Sequence record: NC_073063.1
Direction: 5' to 3' (one strand)
Length of the DNA: 43,945 bases
Origin: Escherichia phage vB_EcoS_PNS1
In this document: in pieces, positions 113-43,945 of the stretch
Layout of the letters: each line of letters opens with the position of its first letter
How positions within the stretch are numbered: the stretch's first letter is position 1
The notes under the pieces: generated by a model
Database searches by the model: none
Told to the model about the DNA's origin: nothing
The model's input: the letters and a program-made list of their open reading frames with translations, nothing else
Program-made: the position numbers and the translations under genes

Positions 113-432
113 ACGAAGCGGGACAGGGGTGCTGTCCCGCTTTGTCCCGCCACCATTAAACCGCATATATACTCACTTTTATTGCATAAACTAAAAGCGG
201 GACAGGGGTGCTGTCCCGATCTGTCCCGCCCCTTAAAAGTGAATAGCTATGCGGTTTTTCTGCATAAAACAAACGGGACAAAAAGCGGGACAGAATGAGG
301 CGGGACAAAGCGGGACAGCACCCCTGTCCCCGTCAGTGCTGCCGCGTGTTTTAGCCGGTCGGGACAGGCGGGACAAACCCCAGTCTTTCAGACTAGACGG
401 GGGTCAATGGCCCCCCTCGTCTGAGACTGAAT
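113..432. repeat. GCGGGACA repeat array with three 19-bp palindromes (GGGACAG-N5-CTGTCCC) and a GC-rich terminal hairpin; copy A
   Basis: Palindromes at 120-138, 200-218 and 312-330; at least 8 direct GCGGGACA(R) half-sites; hairpin agacggggg/cccctcgtct at 400-428; 3-prime ~190 bp about 85 percent identical by eye to 27545-27740. Confidence 0.8.
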
Positions 433-497
433 AAGGTTTGTTTTAAATTCGCTGATACAATGACCGACGGCAACTGCATAAAAAGGGGGACTGCATA

Positions 498-20855: not shown

Positions 20856-21632
20856 TTAACGGCGGCGACGTTTACGTGGTGCTTCGTCTTCGTCCTCATC
20901 TTCGTCATCGCGTGGCTTACGACGTTTGCGAGGTTTTTCATCTTCCTCATCGTCGTCGTCATCGCGGCGCTTGGATTTTTTGGACTTGCGCGGTTTGTCG
21001 TCTTCGTCATCGTCATCACGACGTTTTGACTTTTTGGACTTGCGCGGGCTTTCGTCTTCGTCATCGTTGTCCAGGTCTTCGTCGGAACATGAAGACCCGC
21101 CACCTCCGAAGGCTTCGCCGTCTTCACGGAATCGCAGACCCAGCAAGCCAGCCCCGAGTCCCTTGCCGTTGGTATTGTTCCACGCCCAAATATCCAGGGA
21201 CACATTGCAATAACAACCGGAGTAGATCTCCTGGCCTTCGATCTCGTCGCCTTCTACGGTCAGACCTTGTTCCGTCTGCTTCTCGCCGAGTGACGTTTGA
21301 ATGATCGGCTGTTTGAACGATTTGGCGTTGATGTACAACATGCCTTCAAATTCTTCGGTTACTTCGTCGCGCTCGTCACCGTCGCGAACTGCGCATTCCT
21401 TAGAATCTTGGGCGTAGTGGCGGTCCATCCACTTATCGGCATTCTTCTCGGATTTCAGCTTGTCGGTGAGCACTGCGCGCGCTGCCGCTTCCACTTTGTC
21501 CACCTGCGGATCTTCTTTATCCAGAAGAATCACTGCACGGTATGCCGGTTTTTGTCCATCCTGTTTAGGGGTATCGCGCTCCCAAATTTTAAGGAAACAT
21601 ACGCGCACATTTTTCAGGTTGACTTTAGCCAT
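20856..21632 (-). CDS. putative ssDNA-binding protein (DUF2815-like) with repetitive charged C-terminal tail
   Basis: 258 aa from ATG 21632 (GAGGA RBS); N-terminus MAKVNLKNVRV...; C-terminal tandem repeats PRKSKKSKRRDDDD encoded by ~54-bp DNA repeats around 20975-21075. Confidence 0.6.
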   Translation of the reverse strand: MAKVNLKNVRVCFLKIWERDTPKQDGQKPAYRAVILLDKEDPQVDKVEAAARAVLTDKLKSEKNADKWMDRHYAQDSKECAVRDGDERDEVTEEFEGMLYINAKSFKQPIIQTSLGEKQTEQGLTVEGDEIEGQEIYSGCYCNVSLDIWAWNNTNGKGLGAGLLGLRFREDGEAFGGGGSSCSDEDLDNDDEDESPRKSKKSKRRDDDDEDDKPRKSKKSKRRDDDDDEEDEKPRKRRKPRDDEDEDEDEAPRKRRRR

Positions 21633-23844: not shown

Positions 23845-24357
23845 TTAGTCTTCCAGTTCGAAATATGTTTCGACGATTTCTTTCAGATCTTTGTGGAAGT
23901 CTTCTACGTCGTCATCTTCCAGTTTTGCGATCGATTTGATCTCGAACGCTTCCAGCAGGTCGTCAAATTCGTCGTTGGCATCGTCGTCATCACCACCGGC
24001 GATAATCGCGGCATACTGTTTGATTTCGTCGCGCATCTCTGCCAGCGGGTCGGCATCTTTCTTACCTTTGCCTTTCGCCGGTGCTTTTTTACCCTTCGCC
24101 GGTTTTTCGTCTTCGGCTTCTTCATCGTCGTCATCTTCTACGACTTCTTTTTTGGCCTTACCTTTAGCCGGTGCTTTTTTGGTTTTCGCCGGTTTTTCGT
24201 CTTCATCGTCGTCATCTTCTACGACTTCTTTTTTGGCCTTAGACGGCTTCTTGTCTTCCTGCTTACCAACGGCAGCGCCAACGGTTTCATAATGCTTAGC
24301 GATGGTTTCCAGTGCTACTACGCCGCGAGTGATCAGGTTTACGATTTGCTCAAACAT
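23845..24357 (-). CDS. acidic tandem-repeat protein, first gene of the early operon
   Basis: 170 aa from ATG 24357 (GGAGA RBS); two copies of KKEVVEDDDDE(D/E)EKPAK.KKAPAKGK plus acidic C-terminus; an upstream in-frame ATG at 24537 has no RBS. Confidence 0.6.
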   Translation of the reverse strand: MFEQIVNLITRGVVALETIAKHYETVGAAVGKQEDKKPSKAKKEVVEDDDDEDEKPAKTKKAPAKGKAKKEVVEDDDDEEAEDEKPAKGKKAPAKGKGKKDADPLAEMRDEIKQYAAIIAGGDDDDANDEFDDLLEAFEIKSIAKLEDDDVEDFHKDLKEIVETYFELED

Positions 24358-24627: not shown

Positions 24628-24758
24628 TAACCAATAAGAGACAATGAGACGGGAGTATTATTACACGCGTTCGCGCCCGTTTCAATATTCCAAAGGAGTT
24701 GACACCCCGCGGTTTTAGGTGTAGTTTCGTTGGTCATTAACCAACCGGAGACAGAATA

Positions 24759-25088
24759 ATGAATATCAACGACGCAATCGAAATGTTAACTAAAACTGTT
24801 TGCAGTGAGACTAGCCGGTCCTGGGCGTATACCGATGCCGTGGGTGCGGTGCTATTTGAAATCGAACGTCTGCGACTTACCGAAAAAGCATTGCGCGCGA
24901 AGCTGGAATTACTCAACGGTACGGCAGCCAGCAAGCTGCAAAAACACAATGAAGAAATGGAAGAATACAAAAAACAGGTTATCCGTCTACGTGAGGAAGG
25001 TAAATCCTGGGCCATGATCGCCGAGCTAACCGGAATTAATCAGAGCACAGTGCGCTCATGGGTACGCAATAATAAAACTTCTAAGTAA
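24759..25088 (+). CDS. HTH DNA-binding protein, candidate transcriptional regulator
   Basis: 109 aa; C-terminal SWAMIAELTGINQSTVRSWVRN helix-turn-helix; first plus-strand gene after the divergent region. Confidence 0.6.
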   Translation: MNINDAIEMLTKTVCSETSRSWAYTDAVGAVLFEIERLRLTEKALRAKLELLNGTAASKLQKHNEEMEEYKKQVIRLREEGKSWAMIAELTGINQSTVRSWVRNNKTSK

Positions 25089-25098
25089 GGCCACGGCA

Positions 25099-27363
25099 AT
25101 GAGCTTAATTAAATTCGCTGTAACACGACCCGCTAAAAAAGGCGAAAAAGCCAGGGCGGAAAACTTCCAGATGACCACCGATGAATTTTTCGAATTTATC
25201 AATGACGCGAAAGAAATCTCCTCGGTGCATATCAACAAGACGGAAGATAAAGCCGAGTATGCGCGCCGCAAGCGTAAGGCCGATGGCATCGTGGCGTATA
25301 CCAGTGACGGCTTACGCCGCAAGACCAGTGCGGTGGACCGCTCGATCCTGTTCTTCGATATTGACCGCACCGACACCCGCACCTTACGCCGCTGCCGTAA
25401 GGCTTTCATCGACGCGGGGCTGGAGCACGTATTCCACACCACTACGGGCGACCGCCACCCGCTGAAGGGCGGAACGCGTTGCGCCCGTTTCCTGGTGCTC
25501 ACTGACAAGCCTGTCCCGGCGGAAGACCTGGGCCGTGTCCAGTATGCGCTATTACACCAACTGGGTCTGTCAGATGTGGACTTCGACGATTGCACGAAAG
25601 ACACAAACCGCCTGATGTACCTGCCGCACCAGCAATCGGTTATTAAGTGCCACTATGGCAAACGTGCCAGTGTCCGTCGTCTGCTTCGCCTGGCGGATAA
25701 GCTGGGGGTGGAGAAGGAGGAAGTCCGCCGCGAACTGACCAAGGGCGACGACGCCGTGGCAGACGGCATTCTGGACTGGTGCTTCCAGGCGGGATTCGAG
25801 GAGTTATCTTCCGGGCGGGGCTATGAAGTGCCGTGCCCTAACGAACACCTGCACAGCGGCGAAGGGTCCACCGCCATAATGGTCAAGGATGGCGAGATCC
25901 GTTTCAAGTGTATGCACACCGGCAACGAGTGCTGCTCGGAGCTGAACAGACACCAGCACCTGGCGCTCCGTCTTATCGGTATCCCGGACCACCTGAACGT
26001 CGAGCCGCACAACATGTCACGTAAGCAAATCGCCGCCATCCTGCCAGGTCTGGACGACGAGGAAGTCGAATCATTATATGATCATATTGTTGATGCGGTA
26101 GGCGACGGCGAAGAATACGGCGTGTGCACCGATTCGGATCTGGATAACGAGCCGGTCGCACTGTTCAGCAAGCACGACCCGATCATCGAAGGTCTGATTA
26201 ACTTTAAATCGACCTGGTATCTCGCCGGTGAGTCGAACATTGGTAAGTCTTTCTATGTGCTGGGGCAAATGGCTTCAGTATCTGCCGGTATTCCGTTTGG
26301 TGGGGCGAAGGTCGTCCAGTGCCACAACTTCTATTTCGATGCGGAAGGTGGTGAAGCCTCTAACCAGCGTAAAGAAGCATTGCAGATTAAATACGAGCAC
26401 GACCTGGATAAGCTGCACATTATCGATCTGCAATCACGCGGCTGGGATATCACCAGCAAATCAGGCTTGCGCGAAGTTATCAGCTTTATCAACCGCACCG
26501 CTAACGGCGAACCGGTTGGCCTGGTGGCGTTCGACTCACTCAACCAGACTGTTGCGTTGCGGTCCGCGGATGCTAAACCGTTCGACGAGAACAACGCCAG
26601 CGATATGGGTGAAGTGGTCAAAGCGCTGAAGGCCATCGCGGAAAATACAGGTGGCAGTGCGGGCGTCATCCACCACCCGGCGAAGGGTGCAAACGGCAGC
26701 AGAACCCCACGCGGGTCCGGCGCGCTGCATGGTGCTGTCGATTCTGCGTTCTTCCTGGAACAGCCGGACGACAACCAGCCAGGCCAATTGAACCTGTATC
26801 ACGAAAAGGCACGTAACGGCATCAAGCAAGCGCCGCGAGGCTTCGTCCTGCTCAAGTGCAAGGTGAAGGTGGATCTCCGCAAGTCAGAAGCGTTCGCGTC
26901 GCACCAGTCCACCAGCACCGGGCCAGACTTCGGTGACGTGGTTGCCGGTTGGGACGTCAAGCCAATTGCATCCACGCCACGCGACGAGACTCTGTATCTC
27001 GTACCGGTCGCCCTGGCACCGTTCGCCATCGAACAGGCAAAGTCCGCTGGCAAGGCCGCAGTTAAGGAAGAGAACGCCGCAGGACCGCGCAATGAAAAAG
27101 AGAAAGTGCTCTATGCGGCGCTGGAAAAACTGATGGAAGATAACCCGGACAATACCGGATTCAGCAAATCGGCAATTGTCCGCCAGGCTGGACTGGCAAA
27201 AGGTGGAACATCGACGAAGGCAATCGACGATATGGTCGAGCGCGGCGTACTCGGTTTTTATACAGACCCACACACCGGAGCCATCTATGGGTCGTCGAAT
27301 ATCGTCATCAAAACGAATATACCCATCACGCTTTCGGCGACCGATGACGACCTGAAAGATTAA
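25099..27363 (+). CDS. primase/helicase-type replication initiator (RecA-fold ATPase domain)
   Basis: 754 aa; Walker A GESNIGKS, Walker B-like LVAFDSLNQ; central Cys/His cluster; iterons begin at its stop codon. Confidence 0.85.
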   Translation: MSLIKFAVTRPAKKGEKARAENFQMTTDEFFEFINDAKEISSVHINKTEDKAEYARRKRKADGIVAYTSDGLRRKTSAVDRSILFFDIDRTDTRTLRRCRKAFIDAGLEHVFHTTTGDRHPLKGGTRCARFLVLTDKPVPAEDLGRVQYALLHQLGLSDVDFDDCTKDTNRLMYLPHQQSVIKCHYGKRASVRRLLRLADKLGVEKEEVRRELTKGDDAVADGILDWCFQAGFEELSSGRGYEVPCPNEHLHSGEGSTAIMVKDGEIRFKCMHTGNECCSELNRHQHLALRLIGIPDHLNVEPHNMSRKQIAAILPGLDDEEVESLYDHIVDAVGDGEEYGVCTDSDLDNEPVALFSKHDPIIEGLINFKSTWYLAGESNIGKSFYVLGQMASVSAGIPFGGAKVVQCHNFYFDAEGGEASNQRKEALQIKYEHDLDKLHIIDLQSRGWDITSKSGLREVISFINRTANGEPVGLVAFDSLNQTVALRSADAKPFDENNASDMGEVVKALKAIAENTGGSAGVIHHPAKGANGSRTPRGSGALHGAVDSAFFLEQPDDNQPGQLNLYHEKARNGIKQAPRGFVLLKCKVKVDLRKSEAFASHQSTSTGPDFGDVVAGWDVKPIASTPRDETLYLVPVALAPFAIEQAKSAGKAAVKEENAAGPRNEKEKVLYAALEKLMEDNPDNTGFSKSAIVRQAGLAKGGTSTKAIDDMVERGVLGFYTDPHTGAIYGSSNIVIKTNIPITLSATDDDLKD

Positions 27364-27500
27364 TTTGTGCGCGCATTGGTTGCCGATATGGGAATTCCCA
27401 TATCGCTAAAAGATTAATTTGTGCGCGCATTGGTTGCCGATATGGGAATTCCCATATCGCTAAAAGATTAAATTCTGCGCGCATTGGTTGCCATTTAGGG
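27361..27500. repeat. tandem 54-bp iterons each with a 20-bp perfect palindrome; candidate replication origin
   Basis: Units at 27361-27414 and 27415-27468 are identical, third partial; palindrome GATATGGGAATTCCCATATC at 27385-27404 and 27439-27458; each unit carries ATTGGTTGCC. Confidence 0.8.
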
Positions 27501-27544
27501 TGTTTTTATCCGGTCGTATTGGTTGCCGTGTAGTGTAAATATAA

Positions 27545-27740
27545 TGAATAGTTATGCAGTTTTATTGCATAAAGTAAGCGGGACAGAAAGCGGGACAAAC
27601 AAGGGGCGGGACAAAGCGGGACAGCACCCCTGTCCCGCCCCGGATGACGCGGCCTGGCGAGGAGCGGGACAGGCGGGACAAACCCCAGTCTTTCAGACTA
27701 GACGGGGGGTCTGTCACCCCCCTCGTCTGAGACTGCATAA
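27545..27740. repeat. GCGGGACA repeat array with palindrome GGGACAGCACCCCTGTCCC and terminal hairpin; copy B
   Basis: About 190 bp, about 85 percent identical by eye to the 3-prime part of 113-432; palindrome at 27618-27636. Confidence 0.8.
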
Positions 27741-27894
27741 AATCCGGTATTGCAAAATACACGGCAGCATGTTGCGGATCGCGGTCGTCGCTGAACTAGG
27801 CAACCAATGCGAGATGCAGAACGGGGTGTGAAAAATGCAGTTTGCAGATTCAGCAGATAGCGATCAACTTTTTCATACGCGTGATTAATATTGG

Positions 27895-27923
27895 TTGCAT
27901 CCGCCCTGACACACTGCTATATT
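27895..27923 (+). promoter_or_regulatory. candidate promoter for the small-gene block
   Basis: TTGCAT, 17-bp spacer, TATATT; overlaps two ATTGGTTGCA motifs. Confidence 0.4.
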
Positions 27924-27950
27924 GGTTGCACACCAACAGGAGGGCGGAAC

Positions 27951-28130
27951 ATGAAAACCGAAATGGCTGATAAGCACGAAATCAAGATCGGCGATACGGT
28001 AGTCCACAACGGGGAGCTTCGCACTGTGTGCAAGCGAGCGTTTAGCATCGATGAATTTATGGGCCTGCTACTTTGGGGCGACAGCTATCGTTTAGGGTAT
28101 AAACTGGTTGAGAGGGTTACGGAACTATGA
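27951..28130 (+). CDS. hypothetical protein
   Basis: 59 aa from ATG 27951 with AGGAGG RBS. Confidence 0.5.
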   Translation: MKTEMADKHEIKIGDTVVHNGELRTVCKRAFSIDEFMGLLLWGDSYRLGYKLVERVTEL

Positions 28131-38316: not shown

Positions 38317-38388
38317 TTTGTTTTCCTTCATATCTCTGTTGGTGTGCAACCAATATAAAGCAACCAACATCCGCAACGCAAGCGAATT

Positions 38389-43617: not shown

Positions 43618-43931
43618 TTGAGGCGGCGCGGCGATTTTATGGCCCGCCGCCACCCTCCGAAGATTTAGCCGCGAGTTTATGGGGTGCGACACCGGAAGAC
43701 GTGTGTCCACCCGTTGCGCTGTGGCCAGACAATGCGAAGGTAGTCGCAGTCTTCACCGATTGCTCCACGCAATGGCGTACCGGATTTGGCGGGGCATACG
43801 GCATAGACTACGGCGTACTGGAATGGTTATTTAAGATGCACGGCATCGAAAACGCGCAACGCGCATTTAAAGATATCAAGCTAATGGAACGCGTTGCGCT
43901 GGATGAAATGGCGCGGCAGAACCCCGCATAA
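43255..43931 (+). CDS. tail assembly chaperone G-T fusion (by -1 frameshift at 43608-43614)
   Basis: Frame 43611..43931 has no stop and joins ORF 43701..43931; conserved G/GT arrangement upstream of tape measure. Confidence 0.55.
43608..43614 (+). other. programmed -1 ribosomal frameshift site (slippery heptamer AAAAAAC)
   Basis: Heptamer 7 nt before the G stop codon; the -1 frame stays open from 43611 to the TAA at 43929-43931. Confidence 0.6.
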
Positions 43932-43945
43932 CGAAGCGGGACAGG

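Follow-up and report, generated by a model that had tools for sequence, protein, structure and literature searches.

A copy-number-variable 54-bp repeat with a perfect palindrome beside the helicase-primase gene of Escherichia phage vB_EcoS_PNS1: a candidate accessory cassette

The genome of Escherichia phage vB_EcoS_PNS1 (sequence record NC_073063.1; 43,945 nucleotides, referred to here in its entirety as the window) carries a short tandem repeat with a 54-bp unit at the end of the gene for its replicative helicase-primase, at the head of a 590-bp non-coding region that is rich in repeats. A preliminary description of the sequence had likened these units to the iterons of a replication origin. 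The explanation favoured here, on an evenly balanced judgement, is that a non-essential cassette of two parts has recently been duplicated in tandem; this cassette would act as an accessory modulator at most and would not be a set of initiator-binding iterons. The observations that carry this explanation are the anatomy of the repeat, the polymorphism of its copy number, the spread of one of its parts throughout the genome, and the wide distribution and covariation of the other. The phage belongs to Dhillonvirus (the HK578 / JL1 / SO-1 group): a 2-kb query around the repeat, covering the last 860 bp of the helicase-primase gene, matches 157 phage records at 80–95% DNA identity, nearly all of which are Escherichia or Shigella Dhillonvirus phages.

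The 54-bp repeat is real and far from chance. Tandem Repeats Finder delimits it to positions 27355–27492, with a period of 54 bp, 2.6 copies, 97% matches and a score of 262. Two perfect units are followed by a degenerate one at a spacing of 54 bp, in agreement with the preliminary description; the two full units match at 54/54 positions when counted from the TAA stop codon at 27361, and the third retains 72% identity. The upstream gene had been taken for a primase/helicase, an assignment that is confirmed by PHROG 3228 (E = 0) and Pfam AAA_25. In contrast, the repeat does not start exactly at the stop codon of this gene, as had been stated, but 9–12 nt within the open reading frame (ORF) 25099–27363, and units 2 and 3 each duplicate the last codons (CTAAAAGATTAA, LKD-stop). 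The palindrome, initially measured as 20 bp, is indeed perfect in units 1 and 2 and extends by one more base on each side to 22 bp. In the whole window GATATGGGAATTCCCATATC occurs only at 27385 and 27439, even when three mismatches are allowed, and was matched in 0/100 shuffles. The combination of a palindrome and a motif that had been attributed to every unit is found in both full units, whereas unit 3 holds the ATTGGTTGCC box but has the non-folding ATTTAGGGTGTTTTTATC in the place of the palindrome. Unit 3, which retains TTAAATTCTGCGCGCATTGGTTGCC, is the part still present in relatives without the cassette. Considered alone, the ATTGGTTGCC boxes amount to four direct copies spaced by 54, 54 and 35 bp.

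The copy number of the cassette differs between close relatives, as observed when the 3′ flank of the primase gene was aligned, from the primase end, across 15 of them. The cassette is missing from SO-1, L181–L183 and L185, whereas AV129, KarlBarth, L011, L122 and L180 harbour one copy, and SM_S22 and L184 one copy with a mutated palindrome. SM_S24 contains three units with an imperfect palindrome and Teewinot approximately six degenerate units. On a larger scale, a cassette-specific 47-mer matches 83 of ∼155 records, at more than one place in Teewinot and SM_S24 only. For 60 records sampled across the 155 matches, BLAST spans measured 171–173 bp (no cassette) in ∼25 cases and 225–229 bp (one cassette) in ∼32. 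Approximately 72 of the ∼155 Dhillonvirus records (∼47%) lack the cassette, ∼80 have a single copy and only two other phages have multiple copies; the counts refer to database entries, and some phages are represented twice, in GenBank and in RefSeq. The two perfect copies of vB_EcoS_PNS1 are a rare state.

The distribution of copy number is patchy among phages that are 90–93% identical, and the cassettes of SM_S22, L184 and SM_S24, in which the palindrome is mutated, still amplify. Many independent Dhillonvirus isolates keep the perfect 22-mer, in a form that matches the one in Escherichia coli prophages exactly. Head-to-tail, near-identical units whose number differs between close relatives are the features of a variable-number tandem repeat, and both are displayed here. 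The complete genome of SO-1 contains no GGGAATTCCC anywhere, nor an equivalent palindrome elsewhere; it keeps 14 syntenic ATTGGTTGC boxes, three TTGGT-N5-ACCAA dyads and both GCGGGACA arrays. As about half of the genus records have no such units despite 80–95% DNA identity over 2 kb, they are unlikely to be an essential initiator-binding site.

According to the favoured explanation, the first part of the cassette, ATTGGTTGCC, would be another copy of a box used genome-wide by the phage lineage and bound by a putative phage regulator. The second part would be a free-standing, hairpin-forming dyad with a GGGAATTCCC core, belonging to a very widespread family that otherwise resides within KilA-N genes. 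Unit numbers of zero, one, two, three or ∼6 would arise by slippage or by unequal recombination at the flanking repeats of 31–34 bp, and this phage would have undergone one extra duplication compared with its relatives. The cassette would thereby supply extra regulator boxes, together with a hairpin or protein site, to a region that controls replication and transcription. Both the identity of the binding proteins and any effect on replication are predictions.

The box is dispersed throughout the genome: ATTGGTTGC is present in 15 copies against 0.46 expected, and seven of the 15 lie in the 590-bp intergenic region. At 27890, 17412 and 10054 its TTGC(A/T)(T/G) end is followed, 16–17 nt later, by TATATT, TATAGT and TAATAC, respectively, and the box overlaps a weak -35 region. 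A scan for consensus sigma-70 promoters detected none in 27200–28100 or in 1–600. The TTGGT half-site contained in the box also forms TTGGT-N5-ACCAA dyads at three operon promoters (24730–24744, 27922–27936 and 38339–38353), each placed between a -10-like element and the ribosome-binding site. The first belongs to the operon that encodes a helix-turn-helix (HTH) protein and the helicase-primase, and all three occur at the same places in SO-1. The dyads look like operators of one phage repressor. The ATTGGTTGC box may likewise be a putative regulator site, possibly bound by the sigma-region-4-like HTH protein of 24759–25088, which matches Pfam HTH_23 (5e-7) and Sigma70_r4_2 (2e-6) as well as PHROG 9366.

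The palindrome reaches far beyond this phage. The exact 20-mer is present in at least 120 IMG/VR contigs and the 22-mer in 63 stretches of species-representative bacterial genomes, the sources being cyanobacteria, Bacteroidota, Bacillota, alpha-, beta- and gamma-proteobacteria, Dehalococcoidia, Spirochaetia, Saccharibacteria and others, amounting to more than eight phyla. Most copies are part of KilA-N coding sequences (Pfam PF04383); they fall at a single position of the domain and specify the peptide D-M-G-I-P-I-S. Its codons, GAT ATG GGR ATY CCC ATA TCG, are fixed across genomes of 21–53% GC, whereas synonymous sites of the flanking conserved residues vary. Variants were gathered by degenerate peptide patterns, not by a fixed DNA sequence. 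The motifs DAGIPAS (CCGATGCGGGAATTCCCGCATCGG), ETGIPVS (CGAAACGGGAATTCCCGTTTCG) and DIGIPIS (CCGATATCGGAATTCCGATATCGG), together with a further one that has GGGGATCCCC at its centre, keep the dyad by paired changes. Among 21 distinct variants, 7/12 pairs exhibit both-sided change; the covariation score was reached by 0/500 shuffles and all slid controls were lower. The only single-sided stem changes are those that give G-U on the sense strand. Furthermore, in Saprospiraceae, Lewinellaceae and Aureispira the same 22-mer occupies the same KilA-N position one base out of frame and is read as R-Y-G-N-S-H-I. The use of two reading frames and the compensatory changes in the arms indicate that it is the nucleic-acid dyad that is conserved, and not the peptide. 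Codon bias as the source of palindromic coding was rejected in view of the codons fixed at 21–53% GC, the second reading frame and the compensating arm pairs. The palindrome of vB_EcoS_PNS1 has the features of this class, namely a perfect dyad of 20–24 bp, a GGGRATYCCC core and arms of the GATAT/ATATC type; the GGGAATTCCC-core group is defined here and is not a curated family.

A tblastn search found no KilA-N gene in the window, and the copies here are free-standing, like those of L013, L019, L027 and L285. A descent from a KilA-N gene was considered on the basis of a tblastn match of FVRALVADMGIPIS to FLKALESDMGIPIS (E = 0.01–0.03) and was rejected, because it is the genome-wide ATTGGTTGC box that encodes the ALVA part and because the flanks of the remaining free-standing copies show no similarity. 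Free-standing copies are located ∼50 nt upstream of a hok/sok locus in E. coli lambdoid prophages, between apparent cro and cII genes in L019 and L332, and between small ORFs, a few nt after stop codons, in L017, L026 and L027. A Pfam search for a shared neighbour gene at free-standing copies revealed differing contexts (hok/sok with DUF551; cII, CI repressor, integrase and DUF551; none at L285). Tandem arrays of palindromes with a GGAATTC core and differing arms are found in L285 (2530–2705), L321, L064 and L310. The array of L285, an Alcaligenaceae metagenome-assembled genome, is non-coding and comprises five GGAATTC-core palindromes ∼25–52 bp apart; the neighbouring ORFs have no Pfam match. 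Literature searches retrieved no description of the palindrome motif.

Further contexts were encountered during this survey. At the start of contigs L295 and L325 the 22-mer (23–44 in both) immediately precedes a sequence similar to the T-arm and 3′ end of a tRNA (GGTTCGAGTCCCGC), which could reflect an attachment site or a tRNA variable arm. A gene encoding KilA-N, T5orf172 and C2H2 zinc finger domains in L095 (3240–3310; a contig of 21% GC) contains two in-frame copies of the palindrome at a distance of 42 bp (VDMGIPIPGISSLKSDMGIPIS), as a tandem duplication within coding sequence. The palindrome is also present in AT-rich viral contigs that are suspected to be giant viruses.

A bolder conjecture, to which only a small share of belief is attached, views the palindrome as the free-standing copy of a cis-element that spans phyla and viruses and is a putative target, as a hairpin or dyad, of the KilA-N domain. 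Phages devoid of KilA-N, this Dhillonvirus among them, would acquire and lose copies near their replication genes, where these would serve for docking or as decoys when the phage is in conflict with resident prophages or hairpin-sensing defences. If it were a KilA-N target, the palindrome would be the first defined ligand of this common and poorly understood viral DNA-binding domain, and the scattered free-standing copies in phage genomes would be explained.

The suggestion that the region is a replication origin survives in part. In this model each unit would be bound, at the palindrome and/or ATTGGTTGCC, by the helicase-primase or its HTH partner, which would then melt the AT-rich DNA next to it. 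Several features speak for it: the units begin within the last codons of an initiator-type gene, an AT-rich minimum lies directly downstream of them (the GC minimum of the local 4.8 kb, 0.395 at 27400–27599), the repeat-rich 3′ flank is kept in relatives down to 44% identity, and every close relative has a cluster of ATTGGTTGCC boxes at the stop codon of the primase gene. The lambda origin, moreover, provides a precedent for palindromic iterons (bioRxiv 10.64898/2026.07.10.737580). Against this, the palindrome is missing in ∼47% of the genus and in the entire SO-1 genome despite the high DNA identity, the copy number ranges from 0 to ∼6 with degenerate copies among them, ATTGGTTGC is spread over the genome and not specific to this place, and many unrelated elements that have no replication gene close to it carry the palindrome as well. 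The inflection in GC skew that an origin had been expected to produce is not seen at 27.4 kb; the sign changes at ∼24.3 kb, where transcription diverges, and GC skew was rejected as an origin marker because it tracks the direction of transcription. An identity as origin iterons is thus improbable for the 54-bp units, and the cassette is probably not the core replication origin.

The neighbourhood is another matter: the conserved, repeat-rich 3′ flank and the GC minimum make an origin or replication-control region near the end of the helicase-primase gene plausible. If the origin lies in this intergenic region, better candidates would be the AT-rich segment at 27540–27577 and the GCGGGACA array at 27578–27680. 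Literature searches found no published mapping of a Dhillonvirus origin. The question is timely, as replication-initiation genes of HK578 have been reported as a route of escape from the OLD defence (bioRxiv 10.64898/2026.07.10.737580).

These two elements form, with a long hairpin, a downstream module that is found in every relative examined, cassette-less ones included. The octamer GCGGGACA occurs 21 times in the genome against 2.1 expected, in two clusters (27578–27680 and 118–375), and copies of a repeat family termed D6 are located at 165, 243, 12804 and 27548. There are two paralogous non-coding modules, each of ∼200–300 bp, at 27540–27740 and 116–434, and both are kept in SO-1 and in a relative of 68% identity. 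Both are candidate origin or cis-replication regions. In the SO-1 record (GQ502199.1, Sodalis phage) the counterparts of 116–434 and 27540–27740 are annotated as the repeat regions 'region A' and 'region B'. In SM_S22 (L178 5030–5230) the GCGGGACA module is itself tandemly duplicated with a unit of ∼120 bp, so that copy number varies there too.

More distant relatives of the helicase-primase, down to 44% protein identity, share the order HTH gene, helicase-primase gene and non-coding flank of 290–650 bp, and their 3′ flanks contain clustered 8–9-mers that are specific to each lineage. At 68% protein identity (L336) there is ATTGGTTGCC around the stop codon, followed by the same module, composed of an AT-rich stretch, four copies of GCGGGACA and the hairpin. 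The flanks at 49% (L338), 46% (L339) and 44% (L337) contain six copies of TTGCGAGT, five of GTTGGCAGC and three of GTTGGCTG, respectively. The palindrome is absent from all four of these flanks.

Features of the helicase-primase 3′ flank, the upstream operon and the paralogous module in the window (positions of NC_073063.1)
Feature	Position	Strand	Remarks
TTGACA-17-TAGTTT promoter	24699–24727		Ahead of the HTH gene; read by eye; followed by TTGGTCATTAACCAA at 24730–24744
Small HTH protein gene (gp45-type)	24759–25088	+	109 aa; first gene of the operon ending in helicase-primase
Replicative helicase-primase gene	25099–27363	+	Relatives annotated helicase-primase
Repeat unit 1	27352–27405		54 bp; order: gene end, TTTGTGCGCGC, ATTGGTTGCC, palindrome
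Repeat unit 2	27406–27459		54 bp; 98% identity to unit 1
Repeat unit 3	27460–27513		Degenerate
Palindrome CGATATGGGAATTCCCATATCG, copy 1	27384–27405		22 bp, perfect; single-stranded DNA hairpin -8.2 kcal/mol, z = -4.1
Palindrome, copy 2	27438–27459		22 bp, perfect; same dyad as copy 1
ATTGGTTGC box	27375–27383	+	Other copies at 27429, 27483, 27518, 27890, 27921 (+) and 27800 (-); syntenic in SO-1
AT-rich segment	27540–27577	+	TATAAT at 27540–27545; inverted repeat TTATGCA-N7-TGCATAA at 27552–27572
GCGGGACA octamer array	27578–27680	+	Seven copies: six direct, one inverted
Long GC-rich hairpin closing the module	27686–27735	+	-15.1 kcal/mol, z = -4.3; no T-tract after it; paralogue at 381–430
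Promoter-like site of downstream operon	27890–27936	+	ATTGGTTGCAT, 17 nt, TATATT, overlapped by TTGGTTGCACACCAA; read from the sequence, below the threshold of the consensus scan
Region A, paralogue of 27540–27740	116–434	+	AT-rich inverted repeat, GCGGGACA array, long hairpin; between tail chaperone and tape-measure genes

Three other accounts of the units have to be weighed. The units may be devoid of function, a gene-end palindrome stretch prone to slippage during replication having carried ATTGGTTGCC and the palindrome along. The identity of the units, which implies a recent event, the patchy copy number among near-identical phages, the amplification of degenerate palindromes as readily as perfect ones, and the fact that the duplicated segment takes in the final codons of the gene, for which no role is possible beyond the ORF, all agree with such a neutral repeat. 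It is nonetheless unlikely, though it retains more weight than the other alternatives, as the perfect 22-mer has been retained in many independent Dhillonvirus isolates in the form found in E. coli prophages, and elsewhere the dyad is under clear selection for pairing. The second account is one of cross-talk: the palindrome, as a duplex or as a hairpin, would be the cognate site of KilA-N proteins, here those that resident prophages supply, or would be sensed by hairpin-detecting defences, and would be gained and lost in an arms race. KilA-N genes of E. coli prophages contain the identical 22-mer, the window itself has no KilA-N gene by tblastn, and a near 50/50 ratio of presence to absence fits balancing pressures. 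It has recently been reported that HK578 escapes the OLD system of P2 by mutations in the helicase-primase gene (gp46) and in the gp45–gp46 promoter, and argued that the trigger of OLD and Lamassu is the single-stranded hairpin of palindromic repeats at origins (bioRxiv 10.64898/2026.07.10.737580). By analogy, hairpin-sensing defences are one possible reason for the gain and loss of palindromes near replication genes. However, literature searches found no KilA-N protein that binds this sequence, the tandem arrays of L285 with their differing arms argue against a single sequence-specific binder, and the link to defence is an analogy only, which leaves cross-talk with a slender chance.

The least probable account, given very little credence, places the function at the RNA level, with the units as the 3′ untranslated region of the helicase-primase mRNA whose hairpins stabilize or process the transcript, or as an array of decoy RNAs that expands under selection. 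A comparable case is that of the pseudo-ToxI repeats of phage phiTE. As RNA, the region has a strong predicted fold (-67 kcal/mol, z = -5.2), the free-standing copies of L017, L026 and L027 also follow stop codons closely, and the one-sided stem changes of the KilA-N variants all yield G-U on the sense strand. Yet the z-score of the RNA fold derives mostly from the two self-complementary copies pairing together. The sequence that follows the palindrome hairpin is GCTAAAAGATTAA and contains no T-tract, so an intrinsic (Rho-independent) terminator is ruled out. A terminator scan likewise found no terminator-like site in 27200–28100; in 1–600 it found one terminator-like hairpin, in region A only. 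Rfam returned no match at the gathering threshold, and an E-value threshold gave only matches to miRNA precursors far below the gathering scores.

The interpretation of the repeat as a dispensable, duplicated cassette has difficulties of its own. About half of the genus keeps the palindrome, often perfectly, which suggests some benefit. The promoter interpretation of the boxes is weak, as it depends on poor -35 matches, and the three to four ATTGGTTGCC boxes beside the stop codon are not promoters, since no -10 element lies behind them. These boxes may be initiator sites in their own right. Their clustering at the end of the primase gene persists even where the palindrome does not, which is compatible with an origin-proximal role for the first part of the cassette.

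A few properties of the sequence surrounding these elements complete the picture. Positions 1–127 are an exact copy of 43819–43945, corresponding to a circularly closed assembly of ∼43.8 kb that starts within the tail chaperone gene. A sequence search of the helicase-primase against the PDB gave a marginal match to RepA only and otherwise no detectable similarity to solved replication proteins, and an AlphaFold model of its C-terminus, computed without an alignment, was unusable (pLDDT 36). Minus-strand coding regions also contain imperfect tandem repeats at 20872–21067 and 24051–24250 (periods of 54 and 90 bp); they are rich in TCGTC/TTTTTGG and would encode repetitive acidic and basic protein segments.

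Among known systems, the PeSL cassettes of T4-type phages are repeats of a promoter and a stem-loop that mediate the shuffling of modules. The cassette of vB_EcoS_PNS1 resembles them in that a promoter-type box precedes a stem-loop, the two are repeated together in non-coding sequence, and the repeats recombine readily. It differs in that only the box is dispersed, the stem-loop being confined to one locus, and the boxes of the units have no -10 element. The REP and BIME elements are analogous as 20–35-nt palindromes situated just past stop codons, sometimes in tandem and variable between strains. Here, however, there is one locus per genome, where both palindromes lie, and not hundreds; there is no GTAG motif, no RAYT-type transposase is annotated in the relatives examined, and the same sequence also occurs in KilA-N coding genes.

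The origin of lambda, with four dyad-symmetric O-binding repeats in gene O, shares with the cassette the short tandem palindromic units tied to an initiator gene and the capacity of these units to form single-stranded hairpins on melting (bioRxiv 10.64898/2026.07.10.737580). Whereas the lambda iterons are essential and conserved with the O protein, the units described here are missing in about half of the genus, are spaced by 54 bp, number two perfect copies at most and lie outside the ORF except for its last 9–12 nt. The counterpart of the intergenic region in SO-1 is 'region B', which is homologous and which its depositors describe as containing direct, inverted and palindromic repeats resembling those of 'region A'; SO-1 differs in having neither the 54-bp cassette nor its palindrome. 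Satellite phage P4 replicates with a bifunctional primase-helicase, the alpha protein, and two separate clusters of octamer repeats, ori and crr. This likeness covers the GCGGGACA arrays and not the 54-bp units: as in P4, a primase-helicase is accompanied by two octamer clusters, here putative binding sites at 27578–27680 and 118–375. For the unmapped origin of Dhillonvirus, these results shift attention from a dispensable repeat to the conserved, two-copy module of AT-rich DNA and GCGGGACA octamers.

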